DNA from: a virus
Taxonomy: Duplodnaviria > Heunggongvirae > Uroviricota > Caudoviricetes
IMG/VR virus record: IMGVR_UViG_2939121850_000003
Reading direction: 5' to 3' (one strand)
DNA length: 17,816 bases
Shown: positions 6,465-17,816 of the stretch, piece after piece
How positions within the stretch are numbered: the first letter of the stretch is position 1
How the letters are laid out: every line of letters begins with the position of its first letter
Made by a program: the position numbers and the translations under genes
Notes under the pieces: model-generated
Seen by the model: the letters and a program-made list of their open reading frames with translations, nothing else
The model's database searches: none
Told to the model about the DNA's origin: nothing

Positions 6465-7409
6465 TCACAACCAGCCGACGCTCTCTCGCCATTTATAATT
6501 AGTAACTTTATCATTTTCGCTTATTTTTTTAGATATAGAGCGCGGCTCTCTTCCTAGATACTCAGATATTTCTATCGGGGACAAATCAAAATCAACAAGC
6601 ATGACTCTAAGTTTTTCCATTTCCTTTAAAGTCCAAGGCTTGCCATAATTTTCATAAAGAGATACCTTATGCTCCCTGATAGTTCGCTTTCTCTGAGTTT
6701 CACTTTCCCTCTGAAAAATCTCGCTTTTAAATTGTGAACGGAACTCTTTACAGAAGTTGTTATCAGTTTTTTTGTTATATAGATTGCTAAAAATAAGCTG
6801 GGATGCCGGGTCTAAATCAGGTGTGTTAATAATGAAAACTTTGACCTTTTCCATATAGGGATATTCAATTTTACCCAATATGCTTAATTGCTTTATATTA
6901 AAAAAACCTCTCAAATCAAAAGATTTAATGAGCTTTGATTGGATTACACTTTCAATCCTGCTTGCATTTAAATAACAGTACTTTGCCATTGGAAGGGCCC
7001 ATACTACCAGTTGAGGAATATATTTTTCTAATGCAATGCTCTGCCAATCAGTATCAAAGGTTTGGCTTTTTGCTAGCATGTTTTTCGGCAAATCAGAATA
7101 CATTGTGGTAGATGCCCATATCTTATAATCATTCGCCAAGGCTTGATAGTATTTTGTGTGGTTATGAATTTTATAAGCTGACATGAAGCGATAAACGTCT
7201 TCGTCGTGACCAGCGTCGTAAATTGTTCGATTTCCTCTAAGATAACCGTCGTAATGTTCGGTTATCCTTCTACCTACATTACAACTTACCCCAACGTAAA
7301 CCACACGACTGAAAAGTCCTTTATGGACAATAAGATAAACTCCGCTACAGCCAGATTTCCTGGCCTCTGATAGAGAACCTAAAAATCTCCATTCCATAAT
7401 TAAATCCAT
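6465..7409 (-). CDS. GIY-YIG nuclease-domain protein (314 aa) with C-terminal HTH-like region
   Basis: N-terminal GVYLIVHKG...VVYVGVSCNVGRRITEHY matches the GIY-(N10)-YIG-(x)N...R...H nuclease signature. C-terminal WTLKEMEKLRVMLVDFDLSPIEISEYLGREPRSISKKI looks like a DNA-binding helix-turn-helix. The gene is strongly AT-rich relative to the flanking prophage genes (by eye). Confidence 0.8.
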   Translation of the reverse strand: MDLIMEWRFLGSLSEARKSGCSGVYLIVHKGLFSRVVYVGVSCNVGRRITEHYDGYLRGNRTIYDAGHDEDVYRFMSAYKIHNHTKYYQALANDYKIWASTTMYSDLPKNMLAKSQTFDTDWQSIALEKYIPQLVVWALPMAKYCYLNASRIESVIQSKLIKSFDLRGFFNIKQLSILGKIEYPYMEKVKVFIINTPDLDPASQLIFSNLYNKKTDNNFCKEFRSQFKSEIFQRESETQRKRTIREHKVSLYENYGKPWTLKEMEKLRVMLVDFDLSPIEISEYLGREPRSISKKISENDKVTNYKWRESVGWL

Positions 7410-7956: not shown

Positions 7957-9306
7957 TTATTCCGTTTTACATATCATAGTAGTCGATTGGAGAATATAGT
8001 TTCTGGGAATGTACTCTTCAAAGTGTTCGTCCTTTTTAAATACATGAACTACATTTGGGAATAATTGATAGTCAACAGGGTGTATAGCGTTTGGATTATG
8101 GTACATGTACATGGCTGTACACCATGGTTCTTGATAGTTAGGGTCACTTACATCGGCTGAAAATGGATGTGGGGCTGCATCCTGATCAGTTTTAACACCA
8201 CTGACGTACACTTTGAATCCACTCGCCTCTACACCTGCAAGAATTCCCATCCGGTTAAACTTAGGTATGGTTGCTTGAGTAGTGAGTAAAACGGCAGAAA
8301 CATAATTATTTTGTTCTGAGCCAAAAAAGTTCGACTTGATACTTCTATTTTCATCTGTATGTCTTTCAATAGAAATGCCTGACTCAATATCAATCCCGTA
8401 CAAATAGCTATGCAAGGCTTCGCTTGAGAAGGCCATGGACATTCTTTTTGAATAATCCTGCATTGCTATGACAAATGGTTTGTTCTTTGTATGGTTGAGT
8501 TCCCAGTAATGAACTTTCTCTGGCTCAGGGCAATGCCGGACTTTTTTTAATAAACTTCTTGCAAACTTAAAAGGCATGACATTTAGAACATGTTTTCTTA
8601 ATTCATCCATCTGTTCATCGTTAATGACTTTTCTTTCAAGAGGGGCTTCTGCTTCAGCAATGCTTACAGCCTCTACAGCAATTTCCACTCCAAATTTAGA
8701 TAGCAGAAAATCTGGTTGATTGTATTCTCTATTCATTTCAAAGTCGAGTTCATAAAATACAGCGTTCAAATATAATTCAAATAACCTTGAATTAAATGCA
8801 TCACTTTGAAAATCCCTTATAAATATTCCATCAGGATCTTTGAACCAGTATGCAAGTTCCTCAAGAACAATATATGCAGGGAAATGAAGAGGGTCTTCGA
8901 GGAGCATTTTTATATAAACATTCCTTTTTTTCGCTGGGACCTTACTCAAGAATAATGAAAAAGGTTTGGTTGATTCATCGCCTTGCATGAATGTACCATT
9001 TTGGTGCTGCGCCAGCATCTTTGGTATGTCATCGTTCAAATTATTAAGCAAGACATCCATTGAATCAAATGAAGCCAAGACGTTTATTGCTCTGAATTTT
9101 TTATCTAAATCCCGACCTAAGACTATTGCGTTAAAATCTTTATCAATATTGCATATGATTATTGTGGATAACAATGTTATCCCATTCCCCTCATATTTAA
9201 ACCAGCGTATCTCCTCAGAAAATGTCTTAAGGTAAGGTGAGCGACCGTAAAAATAAATATCAAATTGTTCTTTGCTGATCTCACTGAAGTGTAATCCTGC
9301 GTTCAT
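7957..9306 (-). CDS. Hypothetical protein (449 aa), no recognisable family
   Basis: Long uninterrupted ORF in the AT-rich block. ATG at 9306 is preceded by AAGGAA about 8 nt upstream on the minus strand. No Walker A, methyltransferase or other signature found by eye. Confidence 0.75.
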   Translation of the reverse strand: MNAGLHFSEISKEQFDIYFYGRSPYLKTFSEEIRWFKYEGNGITLLSTIIICNIDKDFNAIVLGRDLDKKFRAINVLASFDSMDVLLNNLNDDIPKMLAQHQNGTFMQGDESTKPFSLFLSKVPAKKRNVYIKMLLEDPLHFPAYIVLEELAYWFKDPDGIFIRDFQSDAFNSRLFELYLNAVFYELDFEMNREYNQPDFLLSKFGVEIAVEAVSIAEAEAPLERKVINDEQMDELRKHVLNVMPFKFARSLLKKVRHCPEPEKVHYWELNHTKNKPFVIAMQDYSKRMSMAFSSEALHSYLYGIDIESGISIERHTDENRSIKSNFFGSEQNNYVSAVLLTTQATIPKFNRMGILAGVEASGFKVYVSGVKTDQDAAPHPFSADVSDPNYQEPWCTAMYMYHNPNAIHPVDYQLFPNVVHVFKKDEHFEEYIPRNYILQSTTMICKTE

Positions 9307-12983: not shown

Positions 12984-13262
12984 ATGGCACGCAACGTAAA
13001 ATATTACAATTCTGATAATTCGCCCGTTCTTGCCTGCACGCACGAGCGGTATTCTCACGCATTCAAGTCTGAATGGTTCCAGCACCCTCCATGCACTGAA
13101 GAGCAGGCTGAATGGATAATTCAGTGTTACCGCAGGCGCGGATACGAGGTTAAGAAAGCTCTTAGTCTCGACTACCGTCACTGGATAATCTCAGTCAGAT
13201 TGCCTTACTCCGAACGCCCACCGCGTCCGTCCCGTACATTCCAGCAACGCATCTGGAGGTAA
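12984..13262 (+). CDS. Hypothetical protein (92 aa), possibly a fragment
   Basis: ATG preceded by GGAGAAAA. The C-terminus is low-complexity and ends 1 nt before the tail-fibre ORF starts, suggesting a recombination or frameshift junction. Confidence 0.4.
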   Translation: MARNVKYYNSDNSPVLACTHERYSHAFKSEWFQHPPCTEEQAEWIIQCYRRRGYEVKKALSLDYRHWIISVRLPYSERPPRPSRTFQQRIWR

Positions 13263-13263
13263 C

Positions 13264-14619
13264 GTGCGGGTATTACTTCGACCTGTTCTGGTACCGGAAC
13301 TCGGGCTGGTGGTCGTTAAGCCGGGCCGTGAATCCATGCCGGTATTCCACAATACCCGGGTAACCGAAGCGCTCGACACGACATTAGGACTGCTTACAAA
13401 AACAGGACGAGACTGGAACACGCAGCATACTGATAACATTAATAAATTTATACCAATTGCAGGCAGTACAAACGGCCCGGCAGGCTCTATGGTTCTTGGC
13501 GGCATTCATGTTCAATTTAGTAAAAATTATGCTGTGCAGTTCGGAGGCCGCAATTCCGGTTTTTGGGGAAGAACAATTGAAAATGGAACGACACAGGAAT
13601 GGAAGAAATTACTAACAGTAGACGATCTCAATTCATCTACCGATCTTGCTGTCAGGTCATTAACCACATCTAACCCGGTAAAATCTGGCGGAGGGCGAAT
13701 TGATGTCCTTGGAAGCACGTCAGACTATAGCAAAATGGATTGCTTTGTACGTGGGTTTGATAGCACCGGTAATTCTCTCGTGTGGGCGTTGGGTTCATCA
13801 GTCGGCGTAAGTAAGATGCTATCGCTAAAAAATTTCTTTAGCGGAGCTGAGATACTGTTAAATGGTAATGACGGCGCGGTTCAACTCAAAACAGGTGCTG
13901 TTAACGGGGCTACAGCGCAGACGCTCACTATCAACAAGAATGAGGTTAACTCAACCGTTGATTTAACCCTTACAAAGCAATCAGGGACTGGTAATCGTTT
14001 TGTTTTACAGAACTCAGGTAATGCAGAACTACCGTTTTCTGTCAGGGTGTGGGGTTCCAGTACTCGACAAAACGTTTTTGAGGTTGGAACGTCTGCTGCG
14101 TATCTGTTTTATGCGCAAAAAACGTCAGCAGGCCAGTTGTTTGATGTAAATGGCGCTATTAATTGCACAACGCTGAATCAGTCATCAGACCGCGACCTTA
14201 AAGACGATATTCTCGTTATCAGCGACGCGACGAAAGCAATCCGTAAAATGAACGGATACACCTACACGCTCAAGGAAAACGGGATGCCTTATGCTGGCGT
14301 TATTGCACAGGAAGTAATGGAGGCGATACCAGAAGCTGTGGGATCGTTTACTCATTATGGTGAAGAGTTGCAAGGTCCGACCGTTGACGGCAACGAGCTA
14401 CGCGAAGAAACTCGCTATCTTAATGTTGACTACTCCGCCGTGACGGGTTTACTTGTTCAGGTCGCCCGTGAAACAGATGATCGCGTTACCGCGCTGGAAG
14501 AGGAAAACACAACGCTACGTCAAAATCTGGCAACAGCAGGCACCCGGATCAGCACTCTGGAAAATCAGGTAAGCGAACTGGTTGCACTTGTCCGGCAGTT
14601 AACAGGAAGCGAACATTGA
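13264..14619 (+). CDS. Phage tail fibre protein, C-terminal fragment with S74-type intramolecular chaperone domain
   Basis: C-terminal region has the SDxxxK Ser-Lys dyad context (SSDRDLKDDILVISDATKAIRKMNGYTYTL...) and a coiled-coil tail typical of self-cleaving tail-fibre or tailspike chaperone domains. Upstream Gly/Ser/Thr/Asn-rich beta-type repeats. The N-terminus (GTG start, odd MRVLLRPVLVPELG) lacks a tail-attachment domain, so the gene is probably truncated. Confidence 0.75.
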   Translation: MRVLLRPVLVPELGLVVVKPGRESMPVFHNTRVTEALDTTLGLLTKTGRDWNTQHTDNINKFIPIAGSTNGPAGSMVLGGIHVQFSKNYAVQFGGRNSGFWGRTIENGTTQEWKKLLTVDDLNSSTDLAVRSLTTSNPVKSGGGRIDVLGSTSDYSKMDCFVRGFDSTGNSLVWALGSSVGVSKMLSLKNFFSGAEILLNGNDGAVQLKTGAVNGATAQTLTINKNEVNSTVDLTLTKQSGTGNRFVLQNSGNAELPFSVRVWGSSTRQNVFEVGTSAAYLFYAQKTSAGQLFDVNGAINCTTLNQSSDRDLKDDILVISDATKAIRKMNGYTYTLKENGMPYAGVIAQEVMEAIPEAVGSFTHYGEELQGPTVDGNELREETRYLNVDYSAVTGLLVQVARETDDRVTALEEENTTLRQNLATAGTRISTLENQVSELVALVRQLTGSEH

Positions 14620-14799
14620 TATCCTTCAAGCCCTGAAGGAGGCTGTTCCTGGTACGTTCAGACTGTTGTTGAGCTGGAAATCGCAACGGAGGAAGAAACT
14701 TCGTTGCTGGAAGTCTGGAAGAAGTATCGGGTGTTGCTGAACCGTGTTAATACAACAACTGCACCGGATATTGAATGGCCAGTAGCACCTATAGGGTAA
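14620..14799 (+). pseudogene. tfa: Remnant of tail fibre assembly gene (tfa), C-terminal about 45 codons only
   Basis: Translation [42 protein letters not shown] matches the conserved C-terminus of lambda Tfa as I recall it (..[39 protein letters not shown]). It lies in the same frame as the tail-fibre ORF, separated only by the TGA at 14617-14619. Confidence 0.65.
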
Positions 14800-14873
14800 A
14801 TTCGTAATGATTACCTAAATACGTTATTCTTTTGTTCAAAAAGTGATTTTGCTATAGGTAGGGAGTATGTTCT

Positions 14874-14912
14874 TGGATTAAGAATAAAAATCGCCATGAA
14901 AGAGCTTCATGG
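14874..14912 (-). terminator. Intrinsic-terminator-like hairpin on the minus strand (stem CGCCATGAA/TTCATGGCG, loop AGAGC, then T-rich tract on minus strand)
   Basis: 9-bp perfect stem at 14890-14912. Plus-strand A-run 14874-14889 (aagaataaaaat) reads as ATTTTTATTCTT after the stem on the minus strand. Confidence 0.35.
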
Positions 14913-15378
14913 CGAGTACATAAACGTACAAAATATGATGAAAGTAGAGTGGCGTAAGCCACTATATTAAGATATGACAATAGCGAAGAAAAGTAAATAA
15001 CATTTTATGGGCGTTTAATTGTTAATTATAAAAACTAGAGTGCCCGATATTGTTTATCTTGCTTTAAAATAATGTACTCAAACCAAATTTTTGAGCTAAA
15101 AGCTCAAATAATATAAATGCAATGATAATGTTTAATAAGACAATTAGCTTGCTTTGTATTTTCATTTCGGAATACTGTTAAGTAACTTTGATGACACTAA
15201 CAATAGATCGGAATTTTCTTAGAGTCAATGGTCACTGTTTTTGCTTGCAAAGCAAATGTTTTTGGTGGTTATAAGTTTTCTTAATATAGTCACCTATGCA
15301 ACTTGTTCCGTGTGGAGATTAAAGGTTAAAATTTAATGCGAAGATGGAATTATAATATATTTTTTTATAATTAATTTA

Positions 15379-15486
15379 ACCTTAACATCGTTGCTGGCGG
15401 CATGGAAGAAATATCGGGTCTTGCTGATGTCGTGTTGGCACTTCCTTAGTGCGGTTATCGAATGGCCAGCTGTACCTGTGGGGTAA
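15379..15486 (+). pseudogene. Second degenerate tfa C-terminal remnant
   Basis: Translation ..[14 protein letters not shown]...IEWPAVPVG* with the internal segment scrambled, consistent with indels. Direct repeat of 14620-14799. Confidence 0.55.
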
Positions 15487-16143
15487 AAACTTTATATGGG
15501 TGCTATTTTTATAATAGCTGGTAAAAACTGGCCGAACTGAAATTCACTGTTGATAAAAAAGATGTGTTTGAGTGTATGTCATTGTTTTCTTAACGGAATC
15601 CACTAGAATGCAGCGAATTTAAGAAGGTGGGTTTTTATTGGAATATAAACTACAATAATGCTCAACTCGTTCGTAGAATTGTTTTTTCTTATTTTTTGGA
15701 ATGCTAACCATTATATGCATTATGGGGGCGATACTTCCTGATAATTTACATGATGCATACATTGAAGCAATAAATTCAATATCATTGTCATCAAAGTTAA
15801 AGCTTTCTCCGTCCATTTCAATTCCTTATGTGTTTGGCATAACTGATGCTGTATCCCATGAGAATTTATGCAAGTTGTTATGTTTGATTTGATATTGCAA
15901 TGATAATTGTAGCTAATTGTTTTCAATTGAGTGAAAGTTTATTTCGAGTGATTAAGTCGAAAAAAAAGATTTCTCACGGTTAGTAAGCGTATTAGGTTAG
16001 TATTCAGATATGAATGGTATTAATGACTAAATTTTCAATCATATATGGATTTTTATGCTGATGAAGATGTTTTATTTGGCGATTCGTCAAGCATCTTCAC
16101 TTAAGTAATCGTATATTTTAAGAGTGCAAAAGAGAAAGGGACA

Positions 16144-16240
16144 ACGTTGCTCGCACTCTGGATTAAATATAGGGTGTTGTTAAACTGCGTTGATACATAA
16201 TTGTACCGGATATTGAGTGGTCTGAAGTCCCAGTCATTAA
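16144..16240 (+). pseudogene. Third degenerate tfa C-terminal remnant
   Basis: Translation TLLALWIKYRVLLNCVDT* followed out of frame by VPDIEWSEVPV. Direct repeat of the two copies upstream. Confidence 0.5.
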
Positions 16241-16532
16241 GTAATCGTTTCGTGATATGCCGCAGAAACGTTGTATGCAATAACGTTCTGCGGTTGGCTG
16301 ATGCACTTTCGAGAGTGTATTGAATAATTTCAAGCCGTTATTGTTTTTACGCGTAACACCATGAAAAGACTGCTTATCTGTTGGGGTATTTTTTGGGGCA
16401 TATATGGGACAGAAATAGGCCACAGATAGATAGTAAGATCGAACTCAGGATGCTTTTGAAAAAATGTAACTATCTGAAAAAAACTAGAAAGCGCCAAGGA
16501 AACCACAGAATGAGAAAAAACATCTGTGAATT

Positions 16533-17816
16533 ATGGATTTCCAGTTATATTCGCTCGGCGCAGCGTTAGTGTTTCATGAAATATTTTTTCCTGAATCATC
16601 AACGGCAATGGCGTTAATTTTGGCAATGGGAACCTACGGTGCAGGTTATGTGGCGCGTATTGTCGGAGCATTTATTTTCGGCAAAATGGGCGACAGAATA
16701 GGGCGTAAAAAAGTGCTCTTTATTACCATCACCATGATGGGGATCTGTACTACCTTAATTGGTGTGTTACCGACCTATGCACAGATTGGTGTTTTTGCCC
16801 CCATCTTGCTGGTGACGCTGCGTATTATTCAGGGGTTGGGTGCAGGTGCGGAAATTTCCGGTGCCGGTACGATGCTGGCGGAATATGCACCAAAAGGTAA
16901 GCGCGGAATTATCTCCTCATTTGTAGCTATGGGAACTAACTGCGGAACCTTGAGCGCAACGGCAATCTGGGCCTTTATGTTCTTCATTCTCAGTAAAGAG
17001 GAACTGCTGGCGTGGGGATGGCGTATACCGTTCCTGGCGAGCGTTGTCGTGATGGTCTTTGCTATCTGGTTACGTATGAATCTGAAAGAAAGCCCGGTCT
17101 TTGAGAAGGTTAATGACAGCAACCAACCCACAGCAAAACCTGCACCTGCTGGTAGCATGTTCCAGAGCAAATCCTTCTGGCTGGCAACAGGGCTGCGTTT
17201 TGGTCAGGCGGGTAACTCCGGGTTAATTCAGACTTTCCTTGCAGGCTATTTAGTGCAGACGTTATTGTTTAACAAAGCAATTCCAACAGATGCATTGATG
17301 ATTAGTTCGATTCTCGGCTTTATGACCATTCCGTTCCTTGGTTGGTTATCCGATAAAATTGGTCGCCGGATCCCGTATATTATTATGAATACCTCCGCGA
17401 TTGTGCTGGCATGGCCAATGCTTTCTATCATTGTAGATAAAAGCTATGCCCCGAGCACCATTATGGTTGCACTGATTGTGATTCATAACTGTGCGGTGCT
17501 GGGATTATTTGCTCTGGAAAACATTACCATGGCAGAAATGTTCGGCTGTAAAAACCGCTTTACCCGGATGGCTATTTCTAAAGAAATTAGTGGTCTTATC
17601 GCTTCCGGTTTTGGTCCTATCCTGGCGGGTATTTTCTGCACCATGACGGAATCCTGGTATCCGATCGCCATTATGATCATGGCATATTCAGTAATTGGTT
17701 TAATCTCTGCGCTGAAAATGCCAGAGGTGAAAGACCGTGATTTAAGTGCGCTGGAAGACGCTGCGGAAGATCAACCGCGTGTTGTAAGAGCTGCGCAACC
17801 TTCCAGAAGTCTGTAA
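16533..17816 (+). CDS. ydfJ: MFS transporter, metabolite:H+ symporter (MHS) family, 5'-truncated (ydfJ-like)
   Basis: 427-aa ORF with MHS-family signatures (GDRIGRKKVLFITITMMG, WGWRIPFL, 12-TM-type hydrophobicity). It begins inside the conserved TM1 motif (expected ..EWYDFYLYG.., found MDFQLYSL), so the N-terminus is missing or frameshifted. The adjacent hokD and tail-fibre genes match the K-12 arrangement where Qin interrupts ydfJ. Symbol assigned from context and recalled length, not from a search. Confidence 0.75.
   Translation: MDFQLYSLGAALVFHEIFFPESSTAMALILAMGTYGAGYVARIVGAFIFGKMGDRIGRKKVLFITITMMGICTTLIGVLPTYAQIGVFAPILLVTLRIIQGLGAGAEISGAGTMLAEYAPKGKRGIISSFVAMGTNCGTLSATAIWAFMFFILSKEELLAWGWRIPFLASVVVMVFAIWLRMNLKESPVFEKVNDSNQPTAKPAPAGSMFQSKSFWLATGLRFGQAGNSGLIQTFLAGYLVQTLLFNKAIPTDALMISSILGFMTIPFLGWLSDKIGRRIPYIIMNTSAIVLAWPMLSIIVDKSYAPSTIMVALIVIHNCAVLGLFALENITMAEMFGCKNRFTRMAISKEISGLIASGFGPILAGIFCTMTESWYPIAIMIMAYSVIGLISALKMPEVKDRDLSALEDAAEDQPRVVRAAQPSRSL

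Follow-up and report, generated by a model that had tools for sequence, protein, structure and literature searches.

The window, by which we mean the whole stretch of 17,816 nt that was analysed, is 100% identical to a sequence of E. coli KBN10P04869 located between rspB and ydfJ, and was compared with 18 other loci. It holds a defective Qin-like prophage of E. coli, inserted in ydfJ. Its right end is Qin-specific: positions 16352–16541 are 86% identical to K-12 Qin beside ydfJ, the K-12 prophage limit maps to ∼16541, and the truncated ydfJ occupies 16533–17816. A single internal deletion has fused ydfU, after codon 33, in frame with an inner part of the side tail fibre gene, and other parts of the prophage are heavily deleted as well.

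The left side of the deletion consists of the first 33 codons of ydfU (DUF968/HNH-like; 13264–13362, plus strand). In MEI003 the ydfU start corresponds to 13264 and homology stops at 13362, and residues 1–33 of the fusion ORF match phrog_96 and phrog_11007. The remainder (13362–14619, plus strand) corresponds to the 3′ part of a side tail fibre gene of lambdoid type, its final ∼418 codons, and ends, as described in the first-pass annotation, at the TGA at 14617–14619. Residues 27–438 match positions 799–1210 of the 1210 in phrog_6578. The fibre N-terminus is missing from the fusion ORF; full-length versions of 1090 aa are found in MS85-1 and PCP06235. The C-terminus carries a Peptidase_S74 domain (PF13884, aa 308–359, E = 6.5e-13) with a predicted Ser-Asp cleavage motif (SSDR), NQSSDRDLKDDI, aligned to LNVSSDRRIKKDI of PDB 6f45_A. 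In Peptidase_S74 fibres, folding is assisted by a chaperone that forms part of the protein itself and is afterwards cleaved off. The fibre tip belongs to this self-chaperoning type, for which Tfa is not needed. The G+C content of the fibre ORF is 44–53% vs. 29–36% in the spacers described below.

The Junction Downstream of the Fibre Gene

Past the TGA the frame stays open for another 59 codons, up to a TAA at 14797–14799. These codons had been read as the end of Tfa directly following the fibre stop, which holds for the last 47 (14657–14799) and fails for the first 12 (14620–14656). The latter 37 bp are a linker on the plus strand that is native to the S74 module and is not tfa. Within it lie GAAGGAGG and a weak 7-bp hairpin (fold z = −1.3); the linker is common to mEp460, PhiR70_1, MS85-1 and PCP06235. 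The tfa homology starts precisely at 14657 against every intact tfa compared.

The junction between the S74 module and the tfa remnant is identical, TGA included, in the viable phages mEp460 and PhiR70_1, and also in MS85-1 and PCP06235. Because the two viable phages share both the junction and the stop, a sequencing error, which the first-pass annotation had named as a possible cause of the in-frame continuity, is excluded. Every carrier goes back to a single ancestral junction. The open frame is therefore one chance event with odds of 1 in 3, and we infer that the in-frame placement of the remnant behind the TGA is a coincidence.

Tfa Remnants, Spacers and the Hairpin Block

Tfa is modular, with a variable N-domain that binds the fibre and a conserved C-domain that trimerises (PMC9608196). 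A repeat search of the window identified a family of three direct copies spaced by 687 and 756 bp, in agreement with the direct orientation and ∼700-bp spacing noted earlier. All three are true tfa 3′ ends, as had been proposed, judged by profile for copy A and by DNA for copies B and C, whose match to tfa is confined to the DNA level. Identity to A is 84% for B and 73% for C, and both are unannotated in the genome annotation.

Remnant A (14657–14799, plus strand) is the conserved Tfa C-terminal domain block; its 47 codons, counting the stop, form an uninterrupted frame. It matches positions 87–130 of 131 in Caudo_TAP (PF02413, E = 7e-18) and residues 134–174 of the 175 in phage Mu Tfa (PDB 5yvq_B), and it is 84–89% identical to K-12 tfaQ, K-12 tfaD and lambda tfa. 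It has no start codon or N-terminal domain, and PGAP labels it a partial tfa pseudogene. Remnant B (15384–15486, plus strand) is ∼104 bp long, and compensating +1 and −1 indels garble eight of its codons. In PCP06235, where the +1 insertion alone is seen, and in GF47, PGAP calls it a partial tfa with a frameshift. Remnant C (16126–16244, plus strand) is of the lambda/tfaR/tfaD end type and has a 1-nt deletion leading to a TAA at 16198–16200. Over C and the native DNA behind it, identity to lambda 22457–22608 is 83.6%; to PapM-32-1 tfaR it is 79%. Copies B and C had thus been recognised correctly, with limits (15379–15486 and 16144–16240) that are refined here. Against a complete Tfa gene of ∼190 codons, with a start and an N-terminal fibre-binding domain, 47, ∼34 and ∼39 codons are left in A, B and C, and the remnants themselves are in all likelihood non-functional. 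Decay had been described as increasing from A to C. The indels and the stop bear this out, while the distance of C from A overstates the decay of C, because the tfa end in C belongs to another allelic type.

The Rfam family RF02111 (IS009) scores 94.5, 40.8 and 32 bits, all under its gathering threshold of 117. Its full-score matches fall within the intact tfaD and tfaQ coding sequences, and the family therefore corresponds to part of tfa. The left edges of at least five independent remnants lie 100–175 bp from the tfa stop: A at −143, B at −104, C at ∼−117, the E10 remnant at ∼−130 and tfaX at ∼−150 to −175.

The DNA preceding the copies had been described as AT-rich and ORF-free; the spacers are AT-rich (29–36% G+C) and each holds an ORF. 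Spacer A (14800–15380; G+C ∼30%) is a cargo cassette that elsewhere adjoins intact tfa. It is 92–96% identical to the DNA behind intact tfa in 23CRST047, 23AR0806 and the phages ev099 and mEp332, and likewise to the DNA behind the tfa remnant of the S74 fibre in PhiR70_1. The homology ends at 15345–15380. Of 5426 complete E. coli genomes, 822 carry spacer A. On its minus strand lies orf33 (15064–15165), an unannotated 33-codon gene for a hydrophobic peptide (MKIQSKLIVLLNIIIAFILFELLAQKFGLSTLF). In three allele groups the gene has kept its full frame with no indel, although DNA identity drops as low as 81%, and pN/pS is 0.06–0.14 (e.g., 12 synonymous vs. 7 non-synonymous differences); it is a predicted membrane-peptide gene under purifying selection. 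Downstream of it, on the same strand, is an intrinsic terminator (14891–14915; fold z = −5.9) with an 11-bp stem followed by TTTTTATTCT. A promoter-like site is seen at 15228–15200 (minus strand), in a scan that as a whole was not above chance (5 sites vs. 8.2 expected).

Spacer B (15487–16125) holds an annotated ORF of 65 aa (15619–15816, minus strand) with a pN/pS of 0.66, a value from 8 differences only. The spacer occurs solely together with copies B and C, in 577–581 genomes. It had no match among 50,697 phage records, and the ORF had no relative among 185,579 species genomes. No intact-tfa context of spacer B was found in the E. coli genomes, the phage records or the species genomes, and the origin proposed for unit B is modelled on that of unit A, which it may resemble. 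Neither orf33 nor the 65-aa ORF matched Pfam, PHROGs or PADLOC. A tblastn comparison of orf33 with phages was empty even though phages contain identical DNA, probably an effect of the low-complexity filter.

The repeat search found no homology between spacers A and B. Tandem duplication of the array is therefore ruled out, as the spacers share no homology. No homology was seen at the join between spacer A and copy B in the window. Three further candidates were discarded. A 17-nt similarity that hinted at a fourth tfa end hidden behind spacer A (locus L003, 4766–4781, vs. window 16121–16137) scored 27 against a shuffle maximum of 32 and is due to chance. Phage ev099 as a carrier of spacer A plus copy B was an artefact in which its own tfa end had matched B, and its locus reads tfa, spacer A, AraC. 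The locus of strain DC71, taken for two separate pieces, has simply the same arrangement as the window.

Copy C is followed by a hairpin block (16260–16351, plus strand) with a stem-loop at 16260–16293, for which the fold z is −3.6 and compensatory changes are seen. The block lies behind tfa or cargo in lambda, mEp460, K-12 Qin and DLP12, MS85-1, PapM-32-1, GF47, 23AR0806, PCP06235 and E10. It was rejected as a canonical intrinsic terminator on both strands, the T-run being missing after the stem. Across the 18 loci, recombination breakpoints fall inside the tfa C-domain block and at the hairpin, and the alignment places breakpoints within the 143-bp block in MS85-1, mEp460, PhiR70_1 and PEC199. 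Recombinants of lambda and Rac with the right crossover in tfa have also been recovered (De Paepe et al., 2014, PMC3945230). The breakpoints in these four loci and this precedent uphold the first-pass suggestion that the conserved tfa 3′ end is a recombination joint. Judged from these sequence comparisons, a cargo slot is bounded by the tfa C-domain block at its left end and by the hairpin at its right. The contents of the slot elsewhere include pinQ-ydfK-ynfT, sitABCD, an AraC regulator and lambda ea47; in one case a Bcr/CflA transporter is followed by sitDCBA, in another spacer A is followed by sitDCBA. In both K-12 and E10, ybcY lies between tfaD and tfaX.

Origin of the Stack

The same array of A, spacer A, B, spacer B, C and hairpin is found in the PCP06235 prophage at argW/intS, with the identical lesion in C and 97–99% identity to the window over B to C. 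Because the whole stack is also present in the argW prophage, it was inherited as a unit and not built in the prophage of the window. The first-pass annotation regarded the stack as a scar of repeated tail-fibre module exchange. In the window, we found no stf or tfa N-terminal sequence and no att, int or other phage gene fragments between the copies. What separates the copies is cargo without stf or tfa N-terminal parts, and the stack therefore records cargo additions and not successive exchanges of fibres; the sole fibre-module replacement is that at junction A. Homologous exchange at this anchor does not by itself create extra copies; that takes, in addition, a join without homology or insertion by a single crossover.

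Most probably, then, the window includes the cargo slot behind the fibre gene of a Qin-like lambdoid prophage, with fossil copies of the DNA for the Tfa C-domain. The comparison shows that one ancestral event put the S74 tip into a lambdoid stf-tfa locus and removed tfa to 143 bp from its end, leaving remnant A. This is followed by spacer A, the native neighbour of intact tfa in ev099-type phages, which is truncated where remnant B adjoins it. Behind remnant B comes what is probably its own downstream DNA, joined to remnant C, and C keeps its native hairpin downstream, as in lambda. Going by position and degree of decay alone, the oldest tfa end would be the one nearest the hairpin, and newer units of tfa plus cargo would have been added leftward. 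For each extra copy, one join without homology would have been required, or else a circle with a tfa-end patch that was inserted by a single crossover. Later, the tfa C-domain block and the hairpin block may have been used as homology arms in recombination by RecA or of the Red/RecET type, which would have moved fibre tips and cargo from prophage to prophage.

Three other readings were found to be far less probable. The 59 open codons beyond the stop, the role of the Tfa C-domain as a trimerisation module and the conservation of the junction in viable phages could mean that the arrangement is functional, with read-through or recoding of the TGA at 14617 adding the C-terminal helical domain of Tfa to the S74 fibre chaperone. 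However, with one ancestral junction in all carriers the open frame is a single 1-in-3 event, and S74 domains are cleaved off mature fibres. The base after the stop is U, a context in which E. coli terminates translation efficiently. A recoding context at this TGA had been put forward for checking, and no SECIS or other recoding RNA in Rfam matched at E ≤ 1; the linker hairpin is weak. The linker of PhiR70_1 has 0 synonymous and 2 non-synonymous changes, the ratio of synonymous to non-synonymous changes in remnant A is 3:2 in mEp460 and 4:4 in PhiR70_1, and in MS85-1 and mEp460 the last part of the remnant has been exchanged for other tfa end types. Thus, programmed read-through or selenocysteine insertion finds neither a recoding signal nor purifying selection on the downstream frame, and we give it very little credence indeed. 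Even less credible is that the copies are relics of a multiple-inversion fibre switch of the Pin/Gin/Cin/Min type, offering alternative fibre and chaperone ends. The first-pass annotation noted that no DNA invertase gene is present, which is true of the annotated window, where no serine recombinase gene is found, but pinQ holds the same slot in K-12 and MS85-1. Against such a switch, every copy is direct, alternative stf segments are absent, and matches to the crossover core are at chance (15 vs. 11.4 expected) with none within the copies, so that this reading fails. It is very unlikely, too, that lambdoid phages integrated successively at the ydfJ site and that large deletions spared each tfa end and a little downstream DNA. 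This would fit the direct orientation of the copies, the position of the oldest-looking copy nearest attR and the heavy deletion of the rest of the prophage. It is contradicted by the same stack and lesions at argW/intS in PCP06235, by the presence of part of the stack beside sitABCD in GF47, and by the lack of att, int or other phage gene fragments between the copies.

The clustering of left edges is not expected from random illegitimate joins, and the cargo-slot reading that we prefer leaves it unaccounted for. It would be explained, along with the position of lambda ea47 between two hairpin copies, if circular cargo cassettes carried a tfa-end or hairpin patch as a portable homology arm, so that a single crossover inserts the cassette and duplicates the patch on either side. 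The remnants would then be a by-product of regular cassette traffic in lambdoid phages and not of rare illegitimate joins, with the orf33 unit among the cargo. This proposal, made by analogy with the PeSL mini-circles of T4-type phages (PMC2839356), draws on several independent cases of cargo between direct repeats of a conserved boundary element. The block that K-12 tfaD-ybcY-tfaX has in common with E10 ends inside tfa ends on both sides, the window and GF47 share A, spacer A and B with different DNA behind B, and lambda has ea47 between its two hairpin copies. In addition, the remnants tend to start close to where the conserved block begins. On the other hand, no homology is present at the join of spacer A and B in the window, spacer A lies between a tfa end and the hairpin in 23AR0806 without a duplicated tfa end, and one illegitimate join with ordinary double crossovers yields the same architecture. 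We regard the portable patch as the less likely alternative, with a low but not negligible probability.

The stack is a clean, datable record of cargo build-up behind lambdoid tail-fibre genes, and in pathogenic E. coli the same slot carries genes such as sitABCD, which the related loci examined here also show. A dead gene end of 143 bp still serves as a crossover point by which a self-chaperoning fibre tip can move between phages. Two small features stand out, namely the conserved gene for a putative membrane peptide of 33 codons and the conserved hairpin at the right edge of the slot.

Comparison With Known Systems

Taken together, the stacked tfa remnants at the right end of the prophage are ordinary recombination scars in a known hot spot of phage gene exchange. 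Close layouts are found in K-12. In DLP12, tfaD-ybcY-tfaX likewise consists of tfa, cargo on the minus strand (the ybcY methyltransferase) and another tfa 3′ end, truncated and in the direct orientation, here upstream of further cargo (appY, ompT). Its block of cargo plus remnant recurs in E10 in a different context. Unlike the window, DLP12 has two copies instead of three and different cargo, and the first copy in the window, behind its S74-type fibre, is itself a remnant. Two comparisons had been proposed in the first-pass annotation, with Qin and lambda: the tfa end of lambda matches copy C plus the hairpin, and K-12 Qin (stfQ-tfaQ-pinQ-ydfK-ynfT) shares the ydfJ insertion site, the right-end DNA (16260–16560, 86%) and the tfa end type of copy A (84%). 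In Qin, however, tfaQ is intact, the slot holds pinQ-ydfK-ynfT in place of spacer A, B, spacer B and C, and there is no remnant C. The phages mEp460, Ayreon and PhiR70_1 have the S74 fibre C-terminus, the TGA, the 37-bp linker and the tfa remnant at 91–96% identity, and PhiR70_1 also has spacer A; in contrast to the window, they are viable, with full-length fibres and without copies B and C. Downstream lies dinI-int in mEp460 and an AraC regulator in PhiR70_1.

Spacer A may also resemble the morons of lambdoid phages, a concept of Juhala and Hendrix. It is AT-rich, lies between conserved phage sequences and, on the opposite strand, has a promoter-like site, a small ORF under selection and a predicted terminator. 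We know of no description of classical morons as flanked by gene-end remnants. In the case of the mobile regulatory PeSL cassettes of T4-type phages, non-essential genes that vary are bordered by short conserved repeats, with a stem-loop among their elements, at which recombination shuffles the modules (Arbiol et al., 2010, PMC2839356). The repeats there belong to promoter-terminator cassettes, whereas here one of the repeats is the end of a coding sequence, and we use PeSL as a working analogy and claim no membership. The stack is a further case of familiar prophage mosaicism and not a new system.

Host site and composition of the fibre ORF

The chromosome of E. coli KBN10P04869 is 100% identical to window 13000–16540. 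There, rspB and a truncated ydfJ flank the window, which is a short defective lambdoid prophage with the gene order integrase, excisionase, exonuclease, ydfD, dicB, replication genes, hokD, rem, a “tail fiber domain-containing protein,” a partial pseudogene of the tail fibre assembly gene tfa, a 65-aa hypothetical gene and ′ydfJ. The insertion site is that of the K-12 cryptic prophage Qin, and over the final 300 bp ahead of ydfJ the identity to K-12 Qin is 86%. The defective prophage also encodes (7957–9306, minus strand) a 449-aa protein matching the anti-phage defence protein PD-T7-1 (PADLOC PDLC04073, E = 7e-157); the neighbouring ORFs of 314 aa and 326 aa had no family match.

The fibre ORF (13264–14619) stops at TGA 14617–14619, as first annotated, and the frame then stays open to TAA 14797–14799. 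Its start coincides with the ydfU start of MEI003, and this homology is lost at 13362. Beyond that point, the ORF aligns with the final third of a tail fibre family of 1210 positions (phrog_6578 positions 799–1210). The first 33 codons (13264–13362, plus strand) are thus ydfU and the last ∼418 codons (13362–14619, plus strand) fibre, joined in frame, so a single large deletion took out all DNA between ydfU codon 33 and an internal point of the side tail fibre gene. The fusion is found in 203 complete genomes, and PGAP calls it an intact protein. Peptidase_S74 (S74) domains are intramolecular chaperones that are cut off once the trimer has folded, and a fibre with such a built-in chaperone needs no Tfa. 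The C-terminus of the ORF is a domain of this kind (PF13884, E = 6.5e-13), and it shares the SSDR motif with the S16 fibre chaperone whose structure has been solved (6f45).

Three remnants of the tfa 3′ end

Tfa codons had been placed directly after the TGA. The first 12 codons, a 37-bp linker at 14620–14656, are not tfa, but the next 47 match Pfam Caudo_TAP positions 87–130 of 131 (E = 7e-18) and the C-terminus of phage Mu Tfa (5yvq_B residues 134–174). A repeat search returned a single direct family of three copies, A, B and C, with spacings of 687 and 756 bp. The two further copies first described are therefore real and in direct orientation, but their limits move from 15379–15486 and 16144–16240 to 15384–15486 and 16126–16244. 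Copy A (14657–14799, plus strand) has an intact frame. Copy B (plus strand; 84% identity to A) carries two indels, +1 and −1, which scramble eight codons, and copy C (plus strand; 73% identity to A) a 1-nt deletion leading to TAA 16198–16200, so the progressive decay noted earlier holds; a MAFFT alignment agreed with the repeat search. All three consist of DNA for the conserved Tfa C-terminal domain and nothing more. According to PMC9608196, which reports North et al. (2019), Tfa is modular: its variable N-terminal domain attaches to the fibre, and its conserved, helical C-terminal domain trimerises.

The copies fall into two end types: A and B resemble K-12 tfaQ, and C resembles lambda tfa, tfaR and tfaD. 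C retains the DNA native downstream of its end type, C and this DNA together having 83.6% identity to lambda 22457–22608 and 79% to PapM-32-1 tfaR plus the DNA after it. The −1 indel of copy B (window 15438–15470; 6580–6612 in comparison locus L015) mends the frame broken by the +1 insertion, which occurs without it in PCP06235 and GF47. The mended frame, open for 31 codons to EWPAVPVG, is probably due to chance. All three tfa ends matched Rfam IS009 (RF02111) below threshold (14559–14759, 15372–15447 and 16011–16202). As the only matches above threshold lie within the coding sequences of intact tfaD and tfaQ (L008 4857–5055; L007 9345–9543), this family essentially represents the 3′ third of tfa genes.

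The junction at copy A does not stem from a sequencing error. The identical S74 C-terminus, TGA, linker and tfa remnant occur in the MS85-1 and PCP06235 prophages, which have full-length 1090-aa fibres, and the junction is also present in the viable phages mEp460 and PhiR70_1. Ayreon matches across this region up to 14780. In every intact tfa compared (K-12 tfaQ and tfaD, lambda tfa, PapM-32-1 tfaR, PEC199 tfaQ and 23CRST047 tfa) homology starts exactly at 14657. Given the common junction and this edge, one ancestral event replaced the distal fibre and tfa except for its last 143 bp, and by these alignments the junction is old. As all carriers descend from one event, the in-frame position of A represents a single 1-in-3 outcome.

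Nor does anything in the sequence suggest recoding at the TGA, a context raised in the first-pass annotation. A search for SECIS or other recoding RNAs gave none at E ≤ 1, and the TGA is followed only by a weak 7-bp hairpin (fold z = −1.3). The changes in the PhiR70_1 linker are two non-synonymous and no synonymous, and synonymous to non-synonymous counts in remnant A are 3:2 and 4:4. In MS85-1 and mEp460, tfa ends of other types have taken the place of the last part of remnant A.

Exchange points, cargo slot and spacers

In a multi-locus alignment, breakpoints fall inside the 143-bp tfa block. MS85-1 equals the window to ∼14755 and then K-12 tfaQ, on into pinQ. mEp460 has another end type from 14779, PhiR70_1 has an internal patch of another allele, and PEC199 resembles K-12 on its left side and the window on its right. 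E10 shares the tfa-end/ybcY/tfa-end block of K-12 DLP12 at 97% identity; both limits of the block fall within tfa ends, and the DNA outside it differs between the two. De Paepe et al. (2014; PMC3945230) obtained lambda recombinants with Qin and Rac via stf-tfa homology; the right crossover was in tfa in one third of Rac events, and most events were Red-beta-dependent if the sequences were diverged. These observations support the earlier proposal that the conserved tfa 3′ end serves as a recombination anchor.

Immediately after C lies a 12-bp stem-loop (16260–16293) followed by a conserved 60-bp stretch, together forming a hairpin block (16260–16351). The block is found downstream of tfa or its cargo in lambda, mEp460, K-12 Qin, K-12 DLP12, MS85-1, PapM-32-1, GF47, 23AR0806, PCP06235 and E10. 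None of 200 shuffled versions folds as well (z = −3.6), and the stem shows compensatory changes: at one pair, seven sequences have C-G and three have A-U, and 23AR0806 carries CCGTGGC/GCCACGG instead of CCGCAG/CTGCGG. It has no T-run and is thus not a canonical terminator. The DNA left of the stem varies among loci: between tfa end and hairpin there is nothing in PapM-32-1, pinQ-ydfK-ynfT in K-12 Qin and MS85-1, spacer A (the DNA between A and B) alone in 23AR0806, A, spacer A and B with a Bcr/CflA transporter in GF47, and the full stack in the window and PCP06235. In lambda, two hairpin copies (22573–22606 and 24162–24195; L018 3574–3607 and 5163–5196) flank ea47. As judged from these alignments, many lambdoid phages have behind tfa a cargo slot whose right edge is marked by the hairpin block, and both tfa end and hairpin act as exchange points. 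The GF47 efflux transporter (L016 3884–5086) and sitDCBA, the sitABCD iron/manganese transporter (L005, L016 and L017), both sit in this slot in related prophages, showing that fitness and virulence cargo uses the position. No serine invertase is annotated in the window, as stated before.

The copies had been described as preceded by AT-rich, ORF-free DNA. The spacers are indeed AT-rich (29–36% G+C vs. 44–53% in the fibre ORF), but both hold ORFs. Spacer A (14800–15380), present in 822 of 5426 complete genomes, is 92–96% identical to DNA directly after intact tfa in 23CRST047, 23AR0806 and phages ev099 and mEp332; in PhiR70_1 it follows the tfa′ remnant of an S74 fibre. It continues to an AraC-type regulator in 23CRST047, ev099, mEp332 and PhiR70_1, and to the hairpin block and sitDCBA in 23AR0806. 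In the window this homology ends at ∼15380, four bases short of copy B. Within spacer A lies a hydrophobic ORF of 33 codons (15064–15165, minus strand; MKIQSKLIVLLNIIIAFILFELLAQKFGLSTLF), annotated in no record and without a family match in Pfam or PHROGs. It is intact and without indels in three allele groups, with a pN/pS of 0.06–0.14 and DNA identity as low as 81%, its flanks being only 73–80% identical. A promoter-like site (15228–15200, minus strand) lies upstream and a strong intrinsic terminator (14915–14891, minus strand; z = −5.9) downstream. The ORF is probably a new small gene. It is also found downstream of tfa in ev099 and mEp332 and is carried by PhiR70_1.

Spacer B (15487–16125) occurs in 577–581 genomes, only in company of B and C, and had no match among phage records. 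Its annotated 65-aa ORF had no relative in 185,579 species genomes; its pN/pS of 0.66 comes from eight differences only.

Origin of the stack

The PCP06235 prophage, located beside intS and tRNA-Arg, contains J, lom and a full-length S74 fibre followed by A, a second allele of spacer A, B, spacer B, C and the hairpin block. It is 97–99% identical to the window over 15300–16300 and only 73–80% across spacer A. The lesion in C is identical in both, so the array predates the divergence of the ydfJ and intS/tRNA-Arg loci and was not assembled in this prophage; the −1 deletion in B is a later change of the window. The array travels within phage genomes, and its presence beside intS excludes an origin by prophage ends piling up locally at ydfJ.

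The alignments show the stack as nested native contexts, and from position and decay we infer that C is oldest and that units were added leftward. Homologous exchange replaces without duplicating, so each extra copy needs a non-homologous join or the insertion of a circle by single crossover; such a circle would carry a tfa-end patch. Between the copies, no fragment of stf, of the tfa N-domain, of att or of an integrase was found. The left edges of at least five independent remnants lie 100–175 bp from the tfa stop (A −143, B −104, C ∼−117, E10 ∼−130 and tfaX ∼−150 to −175), a clustering that random joins do not explain. Lambda ea47 between two hairpin copies is the same pattern on the other edge element. 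Both points would agree with a model that treats conserved edge elements as portable homology arms, like the PeSL cassettes and mini-circles known in T4-type phages (PMC2839356). We regard portable arms as a conceivable but rather unlikely origin.

It is well known that cargo lies behind fibre genes and that stf-tfa has mosaic joints, and K-12 already has an annotated series of truncated tfa copies (tfaD and tfaX). To these the window adds a three-copy example with two unannotated remnants, a probable new small gene, and a defunct gene end at which crossovers can still exchange a fibre tip that chaperones itself.
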